NCBI GenBank assembly: GCA_025449905.1
Contig: JANWIN010000012.1
Span: 109,318-173,317, forward strand
Length of the DNA: 64,000 nt
From: Candidatus Saccharimonadales bacterium
GTDB taxonomy: Bacteria; Patescibacteriota; Saccharimonadia; Saccharimonadales; JANWIN01
Direction: 5' to 3'
Below the pieces are notes generated by a model. That model searched no databases and was not told the origin of the DNA. It was given only the letters and a program-made list of their open reading frames with translations. Positions 5,950-53,346 of the stretch are shown one piece after another; within the stretch, counting starts at the first letter, position 1; each line of letters opens with the position of its first letter. Both the position numbers and the translations under genes were made by a program.

Positions 5950-7296
5950 ATGGGCAAAAGCAGCTCGCACTTATCAAAAAATAAAAACGGATTATTTTCT
6001 ACAACCTCCAAGGCTATATCTATTTTCTTATTTGGCCTACTCATAGCAGCTTTAGTTGTGATGTACGTAAATTCCAACTACCGAAAAAGTTTAATTGAGA
6101 AAGCCAACACCATCTCTGCAGTAATTGATTCTGAAAAGGTCGCCAGTCTCAAAAATCCTAGCTCACCAACACTTAATGAGGATTATGATTACCTAAAAGC
6201 CAAACTAGCAGCCGCTAAAGCAGCCAATCATGGTACGCGCTTTACATATTTAATGGATAAAACGCAAGAAAAGGGTGTTTATTTCTTGGCTGATTCTGAA
6301 CCAAAAGATAGTGAAGATTATTCACCGTTAGGACAGGAGTATCCGGAGGCCACTCAAGCACTGCAGGATATTTTTAGCAACAAACGAGCTTTTATTGAAG
6401 GGCCGGTGCATGATCGCTGGGGCACCTGGCTTTCAGTTTTAACGCCGGTTTATAGTAATGACGGTCAATTAGTAGCTATTGCTGGGATGGATATTCCGGC
6501 CAAGGAGTACATAGTTTTGCTGGTAGTTTCGGCCGTGGTGCCGTTGAGCCTAGCTATTGCTATTGCGGCGCTTCTGATAATTGGCGACCGTATTCGTAAA
6601 CGTCAACTAGACGGCATGCTGTTTCGTTCGGAACTTATTTCTATCGCCTCACATGAGCTTTATACGCCATTGACTGGTATTCGCTGGGGAGCCGAAAGTG
6701 TACTGCGCTATCCGCTGGGTGACAATCAGCGTTACCGTGTGGAGTCGATTTATAGCAGCGTCGTTAGACTGCAAGAAAGTATTGAAGAGATTTTGCAGTT
6801 GGCCCGACTGCAAAATGTTAGAGGCCGCGAACTAGAAATACTACCCGCAGACTTAACTGCGATGATAAGTAATGTTTTATCGGTCCAAAAATTGCCGGCC
6901 GCTCAACGCAATGTCAAACTACAATTTACCCAAGATTGGCCCAAATCATTGTCTATAAATTGTGATGAATCACAGCTAAGGCGCGTATTTAATAATATTA
7001 TTTCAAACGCCATTAAATATACCCGCGAAAATACTATTGTTAGTGTTGGCTACCAGCAAACCCCCAAAGCGCACATTATAACTATTACAGATCAGGGCAT
7101 CGGTATACCAAAAGCAGAGCAGAAAAAAGTTTTCGGCGGATTTTACCGAGCCAGCAATGCTATTAGTGAACACACCAGCGGCAGCGGCATGGGCCTATAT
7201 TTATCAAGAAGTGTCGTCGAGCAGCATGGTGGCAAACTATGGTTCCAGTCCGAACAGGGCAAAGGCACAACCGTTTTCATACAACTGCCTCTGTAA
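5950..7296 (+). CDS. sensor histidine kinase with extracytoplasmic sensor domain
   Basis: H-box SIASHELYTPLTGI, N-box NAIKYT and G-box GSGMGLYLS, with two TM segments flanking a ~150-aa sensor domain. Confidence 0.85.
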   Translation: MGKSSSHLSKNKNGLFSTTSKAISIFLFGLLIAALVVMYVNSNYRKSLIEKANTISAVIDSEKVASLKNPSSPTLNEDYDYLKAKLAAAKAANHGTRFTYLMDKTQEKGVYFLADSEPKDSEDYSPLGQEYPEATQALQDIFSNKRAFIEGPVHDRWGTWLSVLTPVYSNDGQLVAIAGMDIPAKEYIVLLVVSAVVPLSLAIAIAALLIIGDRIRKRQLDGMLFRSELISIASHELYTPLTGIRWGAESVLRYPLGDNQRYRVESIYSSVVRLQESIEEILQLARLQNVRGRELEILPADLTAMISNVLSVQKLPAAQRNVKLQFTQDWPKSLSINCDESQLRRVFNNIISNAIKYTRENTIVSVGYQQTPKAHIITITDQGIGIPKAEQKKVFGGFYRASNAISEHTSGSGMGLYLSRSVVEQHGGKLWFQSEQGKGTTVFIQLPL

Positions 7297-8125: not shown

Positions 8126-9404
8126 AAACTGATTCAACAATTTTGAAAATTTCTTCTGGTATACTATTCGGCCCGAGTTTTTTATAGTCATAATCTTCTG
8201 GTAAATCAAAAACGTACTTATTAAGTTCTGGATACTTAGCTTGCGCTAGCTTCATTGCAGCGCGGCTTTCTTTAACCTCGCCGACGCAATCAAGCGGCTT
8301 ATGACCTTCAATGCCTAATAACTGGCGATAGGTTGACTCAAGTTCATTAGTAAGTAGCAGGTTTTTACCCCCAAATAAAGTCTCTAGCTCTTGTTGCTCG
8401 ACAAAAGGCGTCAAAATAAGAAAGGTGAAAGCGCACTTAGGGCATTCGCCACACCAAAAAATTTTGTCACTGCTGTGAATAAAAGCCCGGTTGCAAGAAC
8501 TAAATACCCTTTTGTATTTATTAAAACCAATTTTAGAAAATAATTCGGCAATTCTAACTTCGCTTAATGGTCTAAGCAGGGAATAGTAGCGTAAGTTATC
8601 ACCAAAGCAATGGCTTAAATATTGTTGGTAGTCCTTTTCGAATTCTAAAGATTTAGAGTACTGATGATTAATAGCCACTCCCTGATAGTGTAGATTCGGC
8701 TCACTGGCTGAACTTTCGTTGGAAACTACATTATCTTGGTAGCCACTTAATAATGCTACAATTGTGCCGACACAGGCAAAAATAGCCGAAATAGGGATAT
8801 GGCCGTTTAGAGCACCTTGCTTATTAAGCTCTAAAAGTTGCCTATCCCACTGACGTTCAACCCAAAAATGCTTGGTACCAATGGTTTGAACCAAAGGTTC
8901 AAGCTGCGAACGATGTGACAAACTCCAAGTAGCAACTTTGGGCTGATTCTTCAGCAGTTCGATGCTAACTAATGAATCTTTGCCACCGCCAATCCCGCTA
9001 AGCTGTCCTTCCCCTTCATTACTTAACATGTTAAGTGTCGAGTCACTATTAGTCGGAAAAACTATTACCGTATTCGGACTTAGCTTGTTTACGTATAAAA
9101 ACTCCCCTAGCCCCTTTTGATAAGTTTTGCTAAAAAAATCTGCGCTTGCTTGATCCAGATAACCTTTTTTTATTTCAATACCTGAGGGCATATAGGTTTT
9201 GTAGTATGAAACTCCGGCCATAAAAAATAAGGACTGAAAAGCTCGATCTAAAGCTTCTGTATTCATAGTTTTATAAAAATCAAAGTTGAACTGATAAGTT
9301 TCAGTAAAATTAAGCTGACTATCAAGACTATATTTTAGGGTTAAAGTTTTAGTAGCTTCCTCTAAACTATAATCCTCAAAAATAAAGTTTTGAAACTTAC
9401 TCAT
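8115..9404 (-). CDS. PP-loop ATPase-like protein coupled to murD; candidate MurL (UDP-MurNAc-L-Ala-L-Glu epimerase)
   Basis: SGIGGGKDS is a PP-loop-like motif (SGGxDS), and a C-terminal Cys cluster SSCNRAF...WCGECPKCAF is present. The start overlaps the murD stop by 4 nt (9401-9404). Confidence 0.5.
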   Translation of the reverse strand: MSKFQNFIFEDYSLEEATKTLTLKYSLDSQLNFTETYQFNFDFYKTMNTEALDRAFQSLFFMAGVSYYKTYMPSGIEIKKGYLDQASADFFSKTYQKGLGEFLYVNKLSPNTVIVFPTNSDSTLNMLSNEGEGQLSGIGGGKDSLVSIELLKNQPKVATWSLSHRSQLEPLVQTIGTKHFWVERQWDRQLLELNKQGALNGHIPISAIFACVGTIVALLSGYQDNVVSNESSASEPNLHYQGVAINHQYSKSLEFEKDYQQYLSHCFGDNLRYYSLLRPLSEVRIAELFSKIGFNKYKRVFSSCNRAFIHSSDKIFWCGECPKCAFTFLILTPFVEQQELETLFGGKNLLLTNELESTYRQLLGIEGHKPLDCVGEVKESRAAMKLAQAKYPELNKYVFDLPEDYDYKKLGPNSIPEEIFKIVESVFNS

Positions 9405-27823: not shown

Positions 27824-27838
27824 TCTGAGCAATGTGAC

Positions 27839-27881
27839 GTGCTGACCTGTTTTCGGGCAGAGCCCGAAACTCTGTCAGCAC
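27839..27881 (+). terminator. two-tier hairpin after the G5 gene (terminator candidate without U-tract)
   Basis: GTGCTGAC-ctgt-TTTCGGGC-aga-GCCCGAAA-ctct-GTCAGCAC. Confidence 0.45.
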
Positions 27882-27982
27882 TCTTGACGAATCGCTGTGT
27901 CAGTAACGCTCTGTCGCTCAGTCATCGTATTGGAATACGATTCCTTCGTTCCTCGCTACTTCCTAGCGCTTCATCCAAGCAC
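27881..27982 (+). repeat. copy A of the ~103-nt intergenic element family
   Basis: Alignable by eye with 42917-43019 and 53208-53310. Shared blocks are TCTTG(G/A)C, GC.G.GT, the hairpin ATCGTATT-gg-AATACGAT, TTCG..CTCG, CCTAGCGC, and C(A/C)(C/-)TC(C/A)AAG. Confidence 0.6.
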
Positions 27983-28019
27983 ATCGCTCAGGCGCCCCAT
28001 AGGGTACAATTAGCTCACA

Positions 28020-28832
28020 ATGGAAGATTTAGTAGCTAAGAAGTCGTTGGGGCAGCACTGGTTAACAGATAGCAACACCTTAGAGGCTATGTGTGATGCT
28101 GCCGCTGTTGTGACAGGGGACAATATTCTGGAAATAGGGCCGGGAAGGGGGTCTTTGACTGCTTCCCTATTAAGTCGCGGGGCAAAAGTGGTGGCGGTTG
28201 AATTAGATGAGCGTTTAGCGACTGATTTAAAGCGTAAATTTAAAGATCAACCCTTCACACTTAACATGTTAAGTATTATAGATTATGATTTATCCTCAAT
28301 GCCAGCTGATTATAAAATTGTTGCCAATATCCCTTATTATTTGACCAATCACCTGCTCCGCCTGCTGGTTGACACTTCCGCCCAGCCGCTTCAAGCCGCG
28401 CTTTTAGTTCAAAAAGAAGTCGCCGAGCGCGTCGTGGCAAAGCCAGGGGAGATGTCAATTGTCGCTGTGGCTGTTCAGCTTTTTTATAAACCAAGTCTTG
28501 GGCGCATTGTGCCGGCCCAACTGTTTGAGCCGCCGCCAAAAGTCGATTCACAAATTCTAATGCTCAAAAGGCGAAAACAACCACTGTTTGACGACACAGA
28601 AACCGATAAATTTATGAGAATAGTTAAAGCCGGCTTTAGCGCCAAACGCAAAAAACTACGCAGCAGCTTGGCTGGTGGCTTAAGAATCACAAAGCCCGAA
28701 GCTGAAAAATTATTACAAAAGGCAAAGATTGATCCCAACCAGCGTGCCCAGGAACTGACGCTGAATAACTGGCACGACCTCTACAAAATTGTACAACTTA
28801 GTGACGATCGTCAATATCTTGTACAATTTTAA
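28020..28832 (+). CDS. rsmA: 16S rRNA (adenine1518/1519-N6)-dimethyltransferase
   Basis: KSLGQHWL, the SAM motif LEIGPGRGSLT, and NIPYY. There is no SD. A TACAAT box at 28005-28010 lies 9 nt upstream of the ATG. Confidence 0.9.
   Translation: MEDLVAKKSLGQHWLTDSNTLEAMCDAAAVVTGDNILEIGPGRGSLTASLLSRGAKVVAVELDERLATDLKRKFKDQPFTLNMLSIIDYDLSSMPADYKIVANIPYYLTNHLLRLLVDTSAQPLQAALLVQKEVAERVVAKPGEMSIVAVAVQLFYKPSLGRIVPAQLFEPPPKVDSQILMLKRRKQPLFDDTETDKFMRIVKAGFSAKRKKLRSSLAGGLRITKPEAEKLLQKAKIDPNQRAQELTLNNWHDLYKIVQLSDDRQYLVQF
28787..28828 (+). repeat. 42-nt nested palindromic element, copy 1 (inside the rsmA 3' end)
   Basis: AATTGTACAA-ctta-GTGACGATCGTCA-atatc-TTGTACAATT. It is 37/42 identical to 47135-47176. 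Confidence 0.7.
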
Positions 28833-28848: not shown

Positions 28849-28882
28849 GATACTTGACATGTTAAGTATCACAAGCTAAAAT
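28849..28882 (+). promoter_or_regulatory. promoter TTGACA-N17-TAAAAT with an overlapping palindrome (candidate MarR operator)
   Basis: The palindrome GATACTTgACATGTtAAGTATC (28849-28870) covers the -35 TTGACA (28854-28859). The -10 TAAAAT is at 28877-28882. Confidence 0.5.
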
Positions 28883-30658: not shown

Positions 30659-30665
30659 GTATTGA

Positions 30666-30724
30666 CCCCGCCAGTTAGATTGATAGACGTTGTCTTGCGC
30701 AGCAAATCAATCTAACAGGCGGGG
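30666..30724 (+). terminator. long imperfect hairpin after the MFS gene (terminator candidate, no U-tract)
   Basis: CCCCGCC-aGTTAGATTGAT...ATCAATCTAACa-GGCGGGG, that is 7 + 11 bp with one mismatch. Confidence 0.45.
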
Positions 30725-30753
30725 TTGACAAAAATGTGCTTATGGTTTATTAT
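30725..30753 (+). promoter_or_regulatory. near-consensus sigma70 promoter of ssrA (TTGACA-N17-TATTAT)
   Basis: TTGACA at 30725-30730 and TATTAT at 30748-30753. The mature tmRNA 5' end lies 10 nt downstream. Confidence 0.7.
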
Positions 30754-40606: not shown

Positions 40607-41299
40607 CTACAAGGCTTCGTCAAAACTACGCGACAAATATTCTATGCCATGCTTGTTAAAGCGGTATAACTTAGCTGGACGGTGAGCGCCGTTCATATGA
40701 TACTCGTTGGTAGGCTTAATTAAGTCTAAGCTTAAATACTTCTTTCGAAAGTTGCGCTTATCTAATTTTCTACCCAGTATTGCCTCGTATGCTTCTTGTA
40801 AACGGCTTAGTGTAAAAAGACGAGGTAAGAGGGCAAAGGTAATGTTTGAATACAATATTTTAGAAGCCAGTCTATCTTTGGCGTGCTCAATAATTAGGTT
40901 GTGATCAAAAGCCAGCTGGGGTATGTCATTAACGGGAAAAAATTGCGGATTCCAAGTTGACTTACTGGCCTTAGGTACGAGGTTACGCGATAAACCTAAG
41001 TAAGCAAGTGTGACTGCCGGTCCTCTGGGGTCTCTGTCTGTATTATCAAAGGTATAAAGCTGCTCTATAAGCTCAAGTCTTTCGGTTTTTATGCCGGCTT
41101 TTTCAAAAAGTGAACGGCTTATGGCCTGACTGGCGGTTTCACCAACAGGATTATGGCCTCCGGGAAGAGCCCATTTGCCCTCATACGGATCTCGGGCCCG
41201 TTTTACTAACAAAACCGACAGCTCGTTATCAATTAATTGAAATATAACAACGTCAACAAACACGTTAGGAGATACAAGCTCGTCATCTAGCTTTTGCAT
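40607..41299 (-). CDS. NrtR-like protein (NUDIX domain fused to C-terminal winged-helix domain)
   Basis: The Nudix-like region is ALPGGHNPVGETASQAISRSLFEKAGI. The C-terminal FTLSRLQEAYEAILGRKLDKRNFRKK...PAKLYRFN matches the NrtR wHTH pattern. Confidence 0.7.
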   Translation of the reverse strand: MQKLDDELVSPNVFVDVVIFQLIDNELSVLLVKRARDPYEGKWALPGGHNPVGETASQAISRSLFEKAGIKTERLELIEQLYTFDNTDRDPRGPAVTLAYLGLSRNLVPKASKSTWNPQFFPVNDIPQLAFDHNLIIEHAKDRLASKILYSNITFALLPRLFTLSRLQEAYEAILGRKLDKRNFRKKYLSLDLIKPTNEYHMNGAHRPAKLYRFNKHGIEYLSRSFDEAL

Positions 41300-41384
41300 T
41301 ATTGTATACTCTACATTAACTGTATTGCTTTTAAAAGTACTTAAGCTTACATAGAAAGTACAGGCATGTGTAGAATGTATAAGT

Positions 41385-42188
41385 ATGGAATTAATTGATA
41401 CTCACTGTCACATACATTTTCCCGATTACGAATTGGACCCGGATGAAGTTATAAAGTCTGCAGTCAAAGAGGGTGTTAAAGAATTGCTGTGTGTTGGTTG
41501 CACAGTTCATGACAGCCAGCGAGCAATCGAATTCGCGGCAAAACATCCTAATATCTGGGCTAGTGTTGGCATGCACCCCCACGAAGGTGCGGTTTATGTT
41601 AATGACACGGCTGCGCTGCAATTATTCCGTGAGCTAGCCACTAAGCCGAAAGTTGTGGCAATTGGCGAAACTGGGCTGGACTACCACTACATGCACTCAC
41701 CGAAGGAAGATCAAAAAAAACTGTTTCGCTTTCAACTTGATCTAGCAATAGAGCACAGTTTACCGCTTATTTTTCACGTACGCGACCCACAGCCCATGCA
41801 CTCAAAGGCTGGACTATCGGCTTTTGACGATTTTTTTGACATTCTGGACCAATACAAAGGCATCAAGGGCGTGGTCCATAGTTTTACGGCCGATAAAGCC
41901 GCTCTTGATAAAATTCTGGCCCGCGAGCTTTATGTAGGCATTAACGGCATCGTCACCTTCGCTAAAGACGCTGAACTCCTCGAAACGGTCAAGATAATAC
42001 CCTTGAATCGCTTATTACTAGAAACTGACGCCCCCTTCTTGACGCCTGCGCCCTTTCGTGGTAAAGTGTGTGAGCCTAAATATGTGAGAGTAGTAGCGGA
42101 GTTTATGGCAAAACTTCGGGGGGAATCCATCGAAACTCTTGCCGGGGCCACGAGCAATAACGCTCGGGCTCTTTTTAATCTAAGGTGA
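41385..42188 (+). CDS. tatD: TatD-family metal-dependent hydrolase/DNase
   Basis: LIDTHCHI, GETGLDY, and HSF...ETDAPFL are characteristic TatD motifs. Confidence 0.85.
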   Translation: MELIDTHCHIHFPDYELDPDEVIKSAVKEGVKELLCVGCTVHDSQRAIEFAAKHPNIWASVGMHPHEGAVYVNDTAALQLFRELATKPKVVAIGETGLDYHYMHSPKEDQKKLFRFQLDLAIEHSLPLIFHVRDPQPMHSKAGLSAFDDFFDILDQYKGIKGVVHSFTADKAALDKILARELYVGINGIVTFAKDAELLETVKIIPLNRLLLETDAPFLTPAPFRGKVCEPKYVRVVAEFMAKLRGESIETLAGATSNNARALFNLR

Positions 42189-44200: not shown

Positions 44201-45236
44201 AGTATACGTCGGTTTAAGCGGCGGTGTTGATTCCTCGGTCACAGCTGCGCTGTTGAAACAGCAGGGCTACGATGTAACGGGGGTTTATATGAAGAACTGG
44301 ACTAAGGACATGCCAGGTTTTCCGTGCCCCTGGAAGGAAGATTATCAGGACGCCAAGCGGGTGGCGGTCCAGCTGGGTATTCCATTCAAAGTTTATGACT
44401 TCCAGACCAAGTATAAGCAGCTAGTTGTTGATTACATGATTGATGAGTATAAATCTGGCCAAACACCCAACCCTGATATTATTTGCAACCAAGAAGTTAA
44501 ATTTAAGCTGTTTTTGAATGCGGCCTTAAAAGATGGGGCCGATATGATTGCCACTGGCCACTATGCGCGGGTAAAAAACGGCCAGCTTTTGACGGCTAAA
44601 AATAAAGATAAGGACCAAACTTACTTTTTGTACATAGTTAGCGAAGACGCGCTTAAGAAAACGCTGTTTCCAATTGGTGAATTTACAGACAAAAAGCAGG
44701 TTAGAGAAATGGCTAAAAAGTTTGGCTTGGTTACGGCCGCCAAAAAGGATAGTCAGGGCATTTGTTTTGTGGGCCAGGTTGGGATTAAAGAATTTTTAAG
44801 CCAATACGTAAAAACTAAACCCGGCAAAATCATAGATGAAAACAACAAAATAATCGGCGAGCATGAAGGGGCAATTTTCTATACCATTGGCCAACGTCAT
44901 GGCCTAGATGTGGGAGGCGGATTGCCGTATTACGTAACCGGCAAAGATATGAAGAAGAATGAAGTTTATGTGACAACCAACTTAGACGATAAGCAGATTT
45001 GGGGCAGAGAAATTAAACTGACAGATGTTCACTGGATAAATGATGAGCCAAATGCTAAGAAAACTTATCAAGTACGAACTCGCCACAGAGCACCGCTTAT
45101 AAAAGGGACACTTAACAAGTTAAGTAATAAAACTTGGCAGATAAAATTAACAGATGAAGTCCGAGCTTTAACGGCTGGCCAATCAGCTGTAATTTATAAT
45201 GGCCAACACATTCTCGGTGGTGGCGTAATCGTCTGA
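44193..45236 (+). CDS. mnmA: tRNA 2-thiouridine(34) synthase
   Basis: PP-loop VGLSGGVDSSV and the KDQTYFL motif. It overlaps the desulfurase gene by 8 nt. Confidence 0.9.
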   Translation: MAKVYVGLSGGVDSSVTAALLKQQGYDVTGVYMKNWTKDMPGFPCPWKEDYQDAKRVAVQLGIPFKVYDFQTKYKQLVVDYMIDEYKSGQTPNPDIICNQEVKFKLFLNAALKDGADMIATGHYARVKNGQLLTAKNKDKDQTYFLYIVSEDALKKTLFPIGEFTDKKQVREMAKKFGLVTAAKKDSQGICFVGQVGIKEFLSQYVKTKPGKIIDENNKIIGEHEGAIFYTIGQRHGLDVGGGLPYYVTGKDMKKNEVYVTTNLDDKQIWGREIKLTDVHWINDEPNAKKTYQVRTRHRAPLIKGTLNKLSNKTWQIKLTDEVRALTAGQSAVIYNGQHILGGGVIV

Positions 45237-45251
45237 TACAATTAACAGATA

Positions 45252-47129
45252 ATGACAACGGCGGAAATTCGTACAGCTTATTTAGATTTTTTTGTAAAAA
45301 ATGGGCACAAAGTTATCCCGCGGGCGCGGATTGTGCCGGATAATGATCCAACCACGCTTTTTACTGGTTCAGGCATGCAGCCGCTGATGCCATACTTGCT
45401 TGGCGAAAAACACCCGGCAGGCACTCGAGTTACAGATACGCAAACTGTCTTTAGAGCAGATGATATTGATGAAATTGGGGACAACCGCCACACGACGTTT
45501 TTTGAAATGCTGGGCAACTGGAGCTTCGGTGATTACTTTAAAAAGGAACAAATACCTTGGTTTTGGGAATTTTTAACCGAAATTGTAAAACTCGACCCCA
45601 AAAAACTTTATGTAACTTGTTATAGCGGCGATGAAAAACTAGAGATTCCTAAAGATACTGAATCAGCAGAAATCTGGAAAAAGCTTTTTGAAGCAAAGGG
45701 CATTGAAGTTCAAGAAGCTGACATGAAAACCGAAGTCGAAGGTTATAAGATTGGCATGAAAGATGGCCAGCGGATTTTTTATTATCGTGACAAAAACTGG
45801 TGGAGTAGAGTCGGTGAACCGGATAATATGCCAGCAGGTGAACCGGGTGGCCCAGACACAGAAGTCTTTTTTGATACAGGCGCTGAGCACAATAAAAATT
45901 ATGGTGAACATTGCCACCCCAACTGTGACTGTGGTCGTTGGATAGAAGTCGGCAACTCAGTTTTTATGCAGTACATCAAAAATGACAAGGGCGGCTTTGA
46001 CGAGTTACCAAATAAAAATGTTGACTTCGGTGGCGGTCTGGAGCGAATAGCATCGGCAAGTATTGGCGGCCATGATATGTTCAAAATTGATCTGCTTTGG
46101 CCGATTATTGAAAAGCTACAGGAAATGTCAGGCAAGAAGTATGAAGATCACGTTGAAGCTAAGCGTATTATTGCTGATCATCTTAGGGCCGCTGTTTTCA
46201 TGGCCGGGGATGGAGTAACACCAAGTAACAAAACCCAAGGTTATATTTTGCGCCGATTGCTTCGCCGGGCTATACGCCAGGGCCACGAACTTGGAATTGA
46301 AGACGGTCTTTTCCGAGTGGTTGCACCAATGGTTATGGACATGTACCGTGAACCATTTCCTGAAGTTGCTAAAGATGAAAAAATTGTCATTTCAGTACTA
46401 GAGAAAGAAGAAAAACTCTTTCGTCAGACACTTCGCAAAGGCCTGCGCGAGTTTGAGAAAATTATTAAGAAAGGTTTGGACGGTAAAACCATTTTTACGC
46501 TGTTTGATACCTACGGTTTTCCGCCCGAGCTATCTGTTGAAGAGGCCAAAAAACGCAGTATTGGCGTACCTGAAAATTGGCAAAAAGACTATGAAGCCGA
46601 ACTGGAAAAACAACGTGAGCGTTCGCGCACGGCCGCCGCTGGTATGTTCAAGGGCGGTTTGGCTGAACACTCCAAACAAACCATCAAGTACCACACTGCC
46701 ACCCATCTAATGTATAAAGCTTTGCGGCTAGTTCTGGGCGACCATGTTGAACAGCGCGGCAGTAACATTACTAGCGAGCGTCTACGTTTTGATTTTAACC
46801 ACCCGCAAAAAATGACTGATGAGGAAATCAAAAAAGTTGAAAACATTGTTAATGAGCAAATTGATAAAGATTTGACGGTAACCTGGAAAGAAATGCCGAC
46901 CAAAGAGGGCTTGGCAACAGGGGCGCGCGGCCACTTTGGCGAAAAATACGGCGACACCGTGAAGGTTTACATAATGGGTCCAGAAGACAATCCCTACACA
47001 ATGGAACTGTGCGGTGGTCCGCACGTTGAGCACACCGGAATACTAGGCGAAGATGGCAAGCATTTCAAAATCATCAAAGAAGAATCTAGCGCCGCTGGCA
47101 TCCGCCGCATCAAAGCCGTTTTAGGGTAA
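45252..47129 (+). CDS. alaS: alanine--tRNA ligase, short form lacking the C-Ala domain
   Basis: The class II AlaRS N-terminus is IRTAYLDFFVKNGHKVIP...FTGSGMQP. Editing-domain motifs HTATHL and CGGPHV are present. The protein ends at 625 aa, right after the editing domain. Confidence 0.85.
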   Translation: MTTAEIRTAYLDFFVKNGHKVIPRARIVPDNDPTTLFTGSGMQPLMPYLLGEKHPAGTRVTDTQTVFRADDIDEIGDNRHTTFFEMLGNWSFGDYFKKEQIPWFWEFLTEIVKLDPKKLYVTCYSGDEKLEIPKDTESAEIWKKLFEAKGIEVQEADMKTEVEGYKIGMKDGQRIFYYRDKNWWSRVGEPDNMPAGEPGGPDTEVFFDTGAEHNKNYGEHCHPNCDCGRWIEVGNSVFMQYIKNDKGGFDELPNKNVDFGGGLERIASASIGGHDMFKIDLLWPIIEKLQEMSGKKYEDHVEAKRIIADHLRAAVFMAGDGVTPSNKTQGYILRRLLRRAIRQGHELGIEDGLFRVVAPMVMDMYREPFPEVAKDEKIVISVLEKEEKLFRQTLRKGLREFEKIIKKGLDGKTIFTLFDTYGFPPELSVEEAKKRSIGVPENWQKDYEAELEKQRERSRTAAAGMFKGGLAEHSKQTIKYHTATHLMYKALRLVLGDHVEQRGSNITSERLRFDFNHPQKMTDEEIKKVENIVNEQIDKDLTVTWKEMPTKEGLATGARGHFGEKYGDTVKVYIMGPEDNPYTMELCGGPHVEHTGILGEDGKHFKIIKEESSAAGIRRIKAVLG

Positions 47130-47134
47130 TCTGA

Positions 47135-47176
47135 AATTGTACAACTTTGTGACGATCGTCACGATTATGTACAATT
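47135..47176 (+). repeat. 42-nt nested palindromic element, copy 2 (5 nt after the alaS stop)
   Basis: AATTGTACA-acttt-GTGACGATCGTCAC-gatta-TGTACAATT. It is 37/42 identical to 28787-28828. Confidence 0.7.
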
Positions 47177-47216
47177 TGGCTGGTGCGAAAACAGTAAAAG
47201 CGTTATTATTTAGATC

Positions 47217-47516
47217 ATGATTAGCGTTTATGGGCAAGCAAAACCCAATCAAATAGGCGGAGCGCTGTTTGACACCACAAAAATATTTTTTGAAGATCAC
47301 GAGCTGGCTCGGCGACAGGCTTTTGAAGAACACTTACCCAGAGCAGACTTGAATTATAAGAGAAGGCTATTCCCGGAGGAGCTGGTTTTATGGGGGATTG
47401 TGGAAAGAGAAGACATTTTAGCGGTTATCCAGGGTGAAAGAAATAAAACAGTGGGCCGCCGCGTTCCAGCAAGCAGAGCTTCTGAGAAAGTTGGAGTGTC
47501 AGAAGACTACCTCTAA
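47217..47516 (+). CDS. hypothetical protein
   Basis: From the ORF track only (99 aa). Confidence 0.4.
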   Translation: MISVYGQAKPNQIGGALFDTTKIFFEDHELARRQAFEEHLPRADLNYKRRLFPEELVLWGIVEREDILAVIQGERNKTVGRRVPASRASEKVGVSEDYL

Positions 47517-47551
47517 AAACTTGCTACCCCTGAAATGATATAATCAAAAGC

Positions 47552-53153: not shown

Positions 53154-53166
53154 AAGCTATGTAACA

Positions 53167-53207
53167 TTCTAGCCTGCTCCTGAGCAGAACTCAGGATTCT
53201 GCTAGAA
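53167..53207 (+). terminator. two-tier hairpin after the LysM-CHAP gene (terminator candidate without U-tract)
   Basis: TTCTAGC...CCTGAG-cagaa-CTCAGG...GCTAGAA. Confidence 0.45.
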
Positions 53208-53310
53208 TTCTTGGCACGCTGCGTTGTTAACTTCCTGTGCGACTCAATCACCGTATTTCATATACGGCTCTTTCGCTACTCGTTGTTTCCTAGCAGCGCA
53301 CTCAAGTACA
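53208..53310 (+). repeat. copy C of the ~103-nt intergenic element family
   Basis: Alignable with copies A and B. The hairpin CCGTAT-ttcat-ATACGG carries compensatory T>C and A>G changes. A TATAAT box at 53330-53335 lies 11 nt upstream of the ATG at 53347. Confidence 0.6.
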
Positions 53311-53346
53311 TAACTTCTAGTATTTCGCATATAATTATAACTAGAG

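Follow-up and report, generated by a model that had tools for sequence, protein, structure and literature searches.

Palindromic repeats at gene ends and the element of the window

The closest described systems are the repetitive extragenic palindromic (REP) sequences and bacterial interspersed mosaic elements (BIMEs), short (20 to 45 nt) imperfect palindromes that are located at gene 3′ ends and between genes of the same orientation, are conserved in sequence within a genome, stand at times in adjacent pairs, and are able as RNA stem-loops to end or stabilize the upstream messages. Genomes of the Candidate Phyla Radiation (CPR) are small and thought to be repeat-poor, and their cis-regulatory signals are almost unknown. 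Here, a palindromic element of 44 nt was analyzed that occurs twice in a 64,000-nt stretch of DNA from Candidatus Saccharimonadales bacterium (GenBank assembly GCA_025449905.1, contig JANWIN010000012.1, positions 109,318 to 173,317; the whole stretch is referred to as the window), once in the 3′ end of the rRNA methyltransferase gene rsmA (copy 1, W1) and once past the end of alaS (copy 2, W2). The element resembles several known kinds of sequence, although membership in none of them could be demonstrated; its novelty is modest, since palindromic repeats are familiar in general and this one adds a new and rare case from a phylum about which little is known. Among the readings weighed below, a REP-like hairpin at the ends of transcription units, probably also recognized by a sequence-specific factor, is favored tentatively.

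Both copies follow the layout AAA-TTGTACAA-N5-TGACGATCGTCA-N5-TTGTACAA-TTT, with strict two-fold symmetry about the middle of GATC, and all three boxes (TTGTACAA, TGACGATCGTCA, and TTGTACAA again) are individually self-complementary. The self-complementary outer arms and the inner GATC-centered palindrome named in the original prediction were found again in both copies when the window sequence was re-read, and the copies reported there at 28787 to 28828 and 47135 to 47176 read as quoted, with mismatches at 5 of 42 positions. The repeat, family D6 among the repeats of the window, spans 44 nt, of which 39 are identical between 28786 to 28829 and 47134 to 47177. The perfect core palindrome is 12 nt long in W1 and 14 nt (GTGACGATCGTCAC) in W2. 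Within the 64 kb, the core TGACGATCGTCA is present only at W1 and W2, and the arm TTGTACAA occurs three times, always inside the two elements, the fourth arm being ATGTACAA. The similarity of W1 and W2 stops exactly at the palindrome borders, and no third copy was found in the window by a profile search built from all known copies.

The likeness of W1 and W2 is not due to chance: a degenerate 42-mer pattern matched two sites in the window and none in 100 shuffles. W1 and W2 are also the top two local inverted repeats of the window (I1 and I2), with symmetry scores of 19/22 and 18/22; a value of 14/22 was reached by 2 of 20,000 random centers, and the only higher values sampled, 18 and 19, are equal to the scores of the two elements. 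As RNA, W1 folds at -16.3 kcal/mol (z = -5.4) and W2 at -20.6 kcal/mol (z = -4.3), and the fold z-scores of W1, W2, and the complete copy on metagenomic contig L012 (see below) range from -4.3 to -6.6. GATC is mildly under-represented in the window (118 observed, 167 expected). Restriction-site avoidance was considered and dropped, since TGTACA (9 observed, 9.2 expected) and CGATCG (6 observed, 3.1 expected) occur at or above their expected counts.

Conservation of the element at the rsmA site

W1 is read in frame in rsmA, the translation ending in ...LYKIVQLSDDRQYLVQF before the TAA at 28830 to 28832, which confirms the earlier claim that the element supplies the last ~14 codons of the gene and that the stop follows directly. 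The RsmA segment encoded by W1 is KIVQLSDDRQYLVQF, and the Pfam domain RrnaAD extends to residue 259 of 270, which leaves 11 residues to the protein end. Comparison of the RsmA C-termini of relatives identified this tail as a lineage-specific addition: the orthologue tails beyond the conserved W-x-LY are 0 to 20 aa long and mutually unrelated, and the IVQ... tail of the window RsmA was present in no orthologue compared. No orthologue had the same tail without the palindrome; the tails differ. For annotation, the RsmA tail IVQLSDDRQYLVQF should be taken as a by-product of a DNA element, not as a feature of the protein.

The site was compared in a four-way alignment of the window, organism C (L007, L146, and L147, which are mutually identical), organism A (L005/L006), and L004. 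The gene order of G5 protein, rsmA, marR, and MFS transporter is kept in the relatives, and between conserved flanks the element forms a clean presence/absence block of ~40 to 45 nt, an indel polymorphism in which the window and organism C carry the element and organism A and L004 lack it. It is also absent from this site in L018 and in L025 (organism B). The copy of organism C agrees with W1 at every base of the 14-nt core GTGACGATCGTCAC and of the right arm with its flank, TGTACAATTTTAAG (through TTTTAAG), and its left arm has drifted to AAAAGTGTCAGA. The RsmA of organism C ends in ...LYKKCQIL at a TGA inside the core, so that both frame and stop differ from those of the window. Because organism C keeps the core and the right arm while its stop codon falls inside the core, selection is on the nucleotides and not on the peptide, and the element is a conserved island of non-coding DNA in which the nucleotides, not the encoded peptide, have been kept by evolution. 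The presence/absence block and the different frame and stop in organism C also bear out the original suggestion that the element was inserted into a gene end.

In organism A, the remnant at the site consists only of AAAATTGTA, 9 nt in a different reading frame. RsmA of the window is 72% identical to that of organism A or C, and the remainder of the rsmA-marR spacer is unalignable except for a promoter-associated palindrome, CTTRAC-N-GTTAAG. Given the RsmA tree topology (window,(C,A)) and the pattern of presence, the simplest history is one insertion before the three lineages split, followed by a deletion in A. A conserved palindrome older than the divergence of three species has in this way rewritten the C-terminus of a universal rRNA methyltransferase regardless of the peptide, and its recurrence at a second housekeeping gene end offers a handle on transcription-unit boundaries or on the spread of small insertions in uncultured bacteria. 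The coordinates of the element and of the surrounding features are collected in Table 1.

Table 1. Position of the palindromic element, its parts, and neighboring features in the window
Feature	Position	Strand	Description
Copy 1 (W1)	28786..28829	+	AAATTGTACAA-CTTAG-TGACGATCGTCA-ATATC-TTGTACAATTT; inside rsmA 3′ end
W1 left arm TTGTACAA	28789..28796		self-complementary
W1 core palindrome TGACGATCGTCA	28802..28813		centered between GA and TC
W1 right arm TTGTACAA	28819..28826		includes -10-like hexamer TACAAT (28822-28827)
Copy 2 (W2)	47134..47177	+	AAATTGTACAA-CTTT-GTGACGATCGTCAC-GATT-ATGTACAATTT; begins 5 nt past alaS stop
W2 core GTGACGATCGTCAC	47149..47162		9/10 match to TGTGA-N6-TCACA
rsmA (16S rRNA dimethyltransferase)	28020..28832	+	last 14-15 codons and base preceding TAA stop supplied by W1
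marR-MFS operon promoter-like site TTGACA-17-TAAAAT	28854..28882	+	24 nt past W1; overlapped by palindrome CTTGACATGTTAAG
alaS	45252..47129	+	C-terminus ...IKAVLG; W2 fully non-coding
Lineage-specific ~400-nt insertion	47131..47529	+	between alaS stop and conserved ftsA-like promoter CCCCTGAAATGATATAAT; W2 at left edge
ORF99, orphan	47217-47516		within ~400-nt insertion

Copies in other genomes

No two-armed copy was found in 185,579 species genomes with an exact and strict arm-plus-core pattern. The three single-arm matches of that scan, one in Chloroflexota and two in a promoter-like site of Gemmatimonadales, have no second arm and were judged to be chance or unrelated half-matches. A scan of Joint Genome Institute (JGI) metagenomes for the core and the other arm gave ten loci, and the complete element was present only in L012 (13 kb, 42.6% G+C), as TTGTACAA-ATATC-TGACGATCGTCA-ATTAT-TTGTACAA between convergent genes. 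L012 is regarded as a true relative because its second arm was not demanded by the search pattern. The core TGACGATCGTCA is thus unchanged across W1, W2, organism C (L007/L146), and L012. A second palindrome centered on CGATCG, GTGCACGCATTT-CTTG-CGATCG-TTAA-AAATGCGTACAC, lies at 6229 to 6266 of L012, 77 nt from the full copy and 68% identical to it; its arms are altered on both sides (AA..TT to GC..GC), and its symmetry is still 16/22. The two palindromes are arranged like a REP pair. The same contig encodes a Crp/Fnr-family regulator (1612 to 2289; 4 kb from the element) and, adjoining the element, a Fic protein with a C-terminal winged helix.

Beyond the orthologous rsmA site, no further copies were found in about 110 kb of related loci. 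Viral contigs gave no match to the core-plus-arm pattern and more than 120 matches to the arms alone, all unrelated hairpins or chance, and BLAST searches of phage and plasmid collections did not find the element. A low-power search of the concatenated element translations against 5.8 billion proteins returned 20 candidates with shared words, none of which scored. In the literature, the motif strings matched only Gateway primers or nothing, and no paper on terminators or palindromic repeats of Saccharibacteria was found. In the sequences searched, the family is real but rare, sporadic, and low-copy, unlike a classical REP or miniature inverted-repeat transposable element (MITE) family. The REP- or MITE-like repeat that was originally proposed holds in so far as related copies exist in two other genomes, organism C and L012, which also supports the accompanying remark that W1 and W2 are more alike than independent terminators need to be; its abundance is not supported, with 2 copies per 64 kb and none two-armed in the genome collection. 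The hallmarks that such a repeat should carry, namely, target-site duplications, a GTAG head, and a transposase nearby, were not found.

The Gemmatimonadales site, TTGACGATCGTCAA-N5-TTGTACAAT, was found in five contigs (L001 5625 to 5655, L002 6890 to 6919, L010 593 to 622, L013 1788 to 1817, and L015 1185 to 1214), in an A+T-rich island of a divergent intergenic region beside a DUF4402 gene on contigs of ~68% G+C. Judged by its setting, it is probably an unrelated promoter with a putative palindromic operator, and its likeness to half of the element is probably coincidental.

Comparison with known systems

Stem-loop formation is shared with REP sequences (symmetry 18 to 19/22, folds of -16 to -21 kcal/mol), and so are the position at gene ends and, in L012, the pairing. 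The element differs from REP sequences, which number tens to hundreds of copies per genome in proteobacteria, in being present twice per 64 kb and almost nowhere in public genomes, in residing in a genome of Patescibacteria (Saccharibacteria), and in combining perfect two-fold symmetry with three boxes that are each self-complementary. It has no adjacent GTAG/GTGG head, and no domain of a REP-associated tyrosine transposase (RAYT, IS200/IS605-like) was found in the scanned open reading frames (ORFs) of the window. The location is extragenic for W2 and L012, whereas W1 and the copy of organism C overlap the rsmA reading frame. In this respect the element recalls the Rickettsia palindromic elements (RPEs), palindromes tolerated in coding genes and translated as a lineage-specific peptide, in which the nucleotide unit is conserved and not the peptide; RPEs, however, are 100 to 150 bp long, high-copy, and internal, and the present element is 44 nt long and low-copy, takes the place of the extreme C-terminal tail, and either contains the stop codon or stands before it.

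As in an intrinsic terminator, a stem-loop is placed at the stop codon and before the next promoter, with short flanking A and T runs (AAAA...TTTT in W1 and organism C). The element departs from the consensus of a G+C-rich stem followed by at least five T in eight, its stem base being A/U-rich, and intrinsic terminators are normally neither 89% identical between unrelated genes nor conserved base for base between distant species, unlike the element. From the operators of CRP/FNR and Rex it is set apart by an invariant N6 center, additional flanking palindromes, and an inconsistent position relative to promoters. The half-sites GTGAC/GTCAC are presumably the same as those of matS (GTGACRNYGTCAC), the site of MatP, which is likewise of low density and situated at gene ends or within genes; the spacer is 4 nt in the element and 3 nt in matS, and MatP is not known outside enteric gamma-proteobacteria. 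A MITE has terminal inverted repeats, an internal region, and a target-site duplication and is usually longer than 50 bp, whereas the element is one 44-nt palindrome, and no shared direct repeats flank W1, W2, and L012. The arms GTACAAC/TTGTACA do not fit the integron attC consensus (RYYYAAC ... GTTRRRY), and no integrase was found; integron attC, dif, and parS were all rejected on sequence or synteny. Attachment (att) sites of prophages or islands differ in that here housekeeping, syntenic genes lie between the copies and no integrase accompanies them. Rfam 15 gave no match at the gathering score and at E ≤ 10 only a meaningless microRNA hairpin.

Hairpin, protein recognition site, or neutral insertion

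According to the favored reading, a low-copy palindromic element of about 38 to 46 nt would have entered the DNA as a discrete block at transcription-unit ends. Copy 1 would predate the separation of the window species from two related species; it would have inserted into the rsmA 3′ end, replaced the end of the reading frame, and since then persisted in two of the lineages, with a deletion in the other one. Copy 2 would have been gained later, in the window lineage, at the edge of the ~400-nt insertion past alaS. RNA transcribed from the gene strand is predicted to form a long stem-loop of two tiers that closes the rsmA and alaS messages at their 3′ ends, shortly before the following promoter. 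This stem-loop may terminate transcription weakly and in a non-canonical way, insulate against read-through, or protect the message from its 3′ end; REP hairpins of Escherichia coli have roles of the same sort. An additional sequence-specific factor that recognizes the element is suggested because the core and arms are so strictly conserved in sequence, and the same factor might spread or maintain it.

Several observations agree with a hairpin at gene ends. At all four loci (W1, W2, organism C, and L012) the element is located at gene ends, and of the five strongest local hairpins in the window, the three besides W1 and W2 are found 7 to 16 nt past stop codons, at least two of them (I3 and I6) abutting the next -35 box. 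At 30665 to 30725, a 61-nt stem-loop of -34 kcal/mol with no U-tract separates the stop codon of the MFS gene from the -35 box of the transfer-messenger RNA (tmRNA) promoter; it is absent from the orthologous junction of L004 and thus represents another lineage-specific palindromic insertion at a gene end. Across the related copies 82.9% of cells pair, a value reached by none of 500 shuffles, and the covariation score was reached by 1 of 500; slid controls were also exceeded. These pair statistics come from just 4 to 5 related sequences, which counts on the other side. Variable spacers and flanks remain complementary with different bases (A-T/T-A; AAAA..TTTT versus TTTTC..GGAAG), W1, W2, and organism C depart from Watson-Crick pairing only by G-U pairs of the gene strand, and the symmetric arm changes of the second L012 palindrome likewise count for a hairpin.

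Other evidence speaks against a hairpin function, and part of it favors a protein instead. Canonical terminator features are lacking, the closing stem being A/U-rich with only 3 to 4 U after it, and a terminator scan of the window listed neither copy (tails TTTTAAGC and TTTGGCTG). Relatives lacking the element show no substitute hairpin at the same junctions, the copy number observed is far below that of REP families, and domain scans of the window ORFs found no RAYT or other transposase; in addition, a palindrome born by inverted duplication is symmetric without any selection. The left arm of organism C has decayed with no compensating change in the right arm, and its fold z is only -2.2, while its core, GAUC loop, and right arm are base-for-base identical, which fits sequence recognition better than pure structure; the stems of a neighboring structured RNA (described below), unlike the element, covary freely. 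A close rival, only somewhat less probable than the favored reading and in line with the protein recognition site suggested originally, is that a dimeric protein binds the DNA of the element sequence-specifically, for instance as an operator perhaps combined with a promoter. The core would then be a box of the CRP/FNR or Rex type, TGTGA-N6-TCACA, the right arm would supply TACAAT as a -10 hexamer directed toward marR-MFS, the fabA-like gene of organism C, and ORF99, and the left arm would be a mere mirror image left by a palindromic origin; in a variant, the element would be a chromosome-organizing site of the matS/SBS kind, low-density and palindromic with GTGAC..GTCAC. In organism C, the core (14/14) and the right arm plus TTTTAAG are intact in non-coding DNA and the coding left arm has drifted, the CGATCG loop or center is invariant in W1, W2, and organism C, copies that were found independently, and the TGTGA-N6-TCACA match is 10/10 in organism C and 9/10 in W2, the organism C core TTGTGA-CGATCG-TCACAA being perfect for the half-sites of both CRP/FNR and Rex. 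A promoter scan listed TTGTGA-17-TACAAT in W2 (47147 to 47175), and organism C has TTGTGA-18-TACAAT; immediately ahead of tatD in organism C and of rsmA in organism A, TGTACAAT occupies -10-like positions, and the window rsmA has GTACAAT there. The Crp/Fnr-family regulator encoded on the L012 contig and the conservation of the half-element-like Gemmatimonadales site in a divergent intergenic region point the same way. The operator interpretation is opposed by the L012 copy, which lies between convergent genes and upstream of none, by the CRP box match of only 7/10 in W1 and L012, by inconsistent -35 spacing (15 nt for TTGACG in L012 and on the minus strand of W1), and by distances of 48.5, 69.5, and 82.5 nt from the element center to the downstream -10, which show no helical phasing. 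Moreover, marR has a strong promoter-like site of its own, no Crp, Rex, or other candidate regulator was found among the scanned window ORFs except MarR and NrtR, and the symmetric changes in the second L012 palindrome are hard to square with the specificity of one protein. A regulon site should also have appeared more often in the 185,579 genomes, although the pattern used there was exact and strict. The geometry of a class-I activator (centers at -61.5 and -81.5) was considered and dropped, the organism C distance being out of phase. It is quite unlikely that the site belongs to a new DNA-binding or DNA-processing protein restricted to Saccharibacteria/Patescibacteria, candidates being a recombinase specific for hairpins or palindromes, which would insert the 44-mer at gene ends and at times bring along cargo like ORF99, or a matS-like organizing factor; if this were true, the palindrome would be a new kind of miniature mobile or organizing element in reduced CPR genomes, whereas a weak terminator hairpin duplicated once would be ordinary.

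It is unlikely that the element is a palindromic insertion, selfish or neutral, that serves no function in the host, whether it be a mobile hairpin of miniature size or a side product of repair by fold-back (inverted duplication). Such an insertion would land in tolerated spots, i.e., dispensable gene tails and intergenic DNA, and its palindromy would be kept by its origin or by arm-to-arm conversion. This would agree with the sporadic distribution and the presence/absence at orthologous sites, with near-identical boxes at non-orthologous sites of different genomes, with the position of W2 at the edge of a lineage-specific insertion, with the loss of the element from organism A without visible replacement, and with other long lineage-specific palindromes in similar places. 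It would not lead one to expect a core and right arm perfectly kept between the window and organism C, whose RsmA proteins are 72% identical and whose flanking non-coding DNA is unalignable; nor were a target-site duplication, separate terminal inverted repeats, a transposase, or copies in phage and plasmid collections or viral contigs found. Highly implausible is the further notion that W1 and W2 bound an integrated or invertible 18-kb segment as its attL/attR-type junctions or recombination sites. The copies, separated by 18.3 kb, repeat each other in direct as well as inverted orientation, and a dyad-symmetric sequence of 44 bp has the length of a serine-integrase att site. The intervening segment, however, carries the housekeeping genes tmRNA, metG, pyrF, tatD, iscS-like, mnmA, and alaS, the neighborhood from rsmA to alaS is conserved in relatives lacking the element, organism C has the rsmA copy and no alaS copy, and no recombinase was found in the window, so that synteny effectively refutes this reading.

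The alaS end and ORF99

The AlaS C-terminus ...IKAVL(G/Q) is conserved in every orthologue, and W2 is therefore non-coding. The element is absent after alaS in five related lineages (L018, L019, L020 to L022 = organism C, L023, and L024 = organism A), and in L020, L023, and L024 an ftsA-like gene directly follows alaS. Because these five alaS ends lack the element and the insertion is unique to the window, W2 is judged to be younger than W1 and specific to the window lineage. The heptamer CTGAAAT is repeated at 47131 to 47137 and 47530 to 47536, around the ~400-nt insertion and not directly flanking W2.

For ORF99, only one collinear homologue (P0242, 30% identical) was found among 1.84 billion representative proteins. 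There was no Pfam, PHROG, NCBIfam, or PADLOC match and no phage or plasmid BLAST match, and the structure prediction (predicted local distance difference test score of 46) was unusable. A TATTAT box lies 7 nt ahead of the ORF99 ATG, which suggests a leaderless transcript.

The alaS end of the relatives is itself variable. In L020 (6698 to 6830; also L021 and L022) and L023 (2559 to 2650), a hairpin-containing stretch of 60 to 95 nt past the alaS stop is followed by the remnant of a second alaS end, its last ~30 nt encoding ...IRRIKAVLQ and a stop. It looks there as though inserted DNA that brought along a gene end of its own had replaced or interrupted the alaS 3′ end, a position at which insertion or recombination seems to recur in the clade. 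Just ahead of the conserved C-terminal FKIIKEESSAAGIRRIKAVL, the AlaS proteins P0122 (L023) and P0123 (L019) contain low-complexity insertions of 9 to 25 residues, e.g., GIMDSTGSPSSKK.

Neighboring regulatory and structured sequences

MarR and the MFS transporter downstream of rsmA were identified by domain search, and the nearest named matches of RsmA and AlaS are from Saccharibacteria metagenome-assembled genomes. In organism B (L025 1106 to 1656), a G+C-rich, hairpin-rich insertion of 550 nt lies between rsmA and marR, where the window has the element. A C-rich segment after W1 was considered as a remnant of the ancestral RsmA tail, an idea weakened by a similar 41-nt segment at 8999 to 9039 (repeat family D9).

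All relatives have the palindrome CTTRAC-N2-4-GTTAAG(TAT) overlapping the -35 box of marR, and in organism C it also overlaps the -35 box of the fabA-like gene. Its sites in the window are 28853 to 28866, 28260 to 28273, 45111 to 45124, 2641 to 2654, and 9022 to 9035, and it also occurs in L004, L005, L007/L146, L020, and L025; it is probably a MarR operator, a putative assignment. The CTTRAC/GTTAAG 14-mer is also conserved within rsmA (codons L-N-M-L-S) and within mnmA.

An NrtR-type Nudix regulator is encoded on the minus strand at 40607 to 41299, divergent from tatD. In the window (41371 to 41387) and L020 (1317 to 1331), the -10-like hexamers TAGAAT/TACAAT stand only 6 to 8 nt before the tatD start with no Shine-Dalgarno sequence, which suggests leaderless mRNAs in these genomes.

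A structured intergenic element of ~150 to 170 nt has two copies on the plus strand of the window, at 27831 to 28000 upstream of rsmA and at 53159 to 53330 upstream of obg, and orthologues in L004 (9745 to 9915) and L146 (6082 to 6255). It consists of a nested hairpin with the conserved internal loops CTGY/CTCT and the loop CAGAG, followed by TCTTGRC, a hairpin CGTAT..ATACG, and a long-range closing helix. The two window copies had no Rfam match. RNAalifold reported compensatory changes in 20 of 35 pairs, from only 4 sequences, and the element is a candidate for a new Saccharibacteria RNA motif, possibly of more interest than the palindrome.

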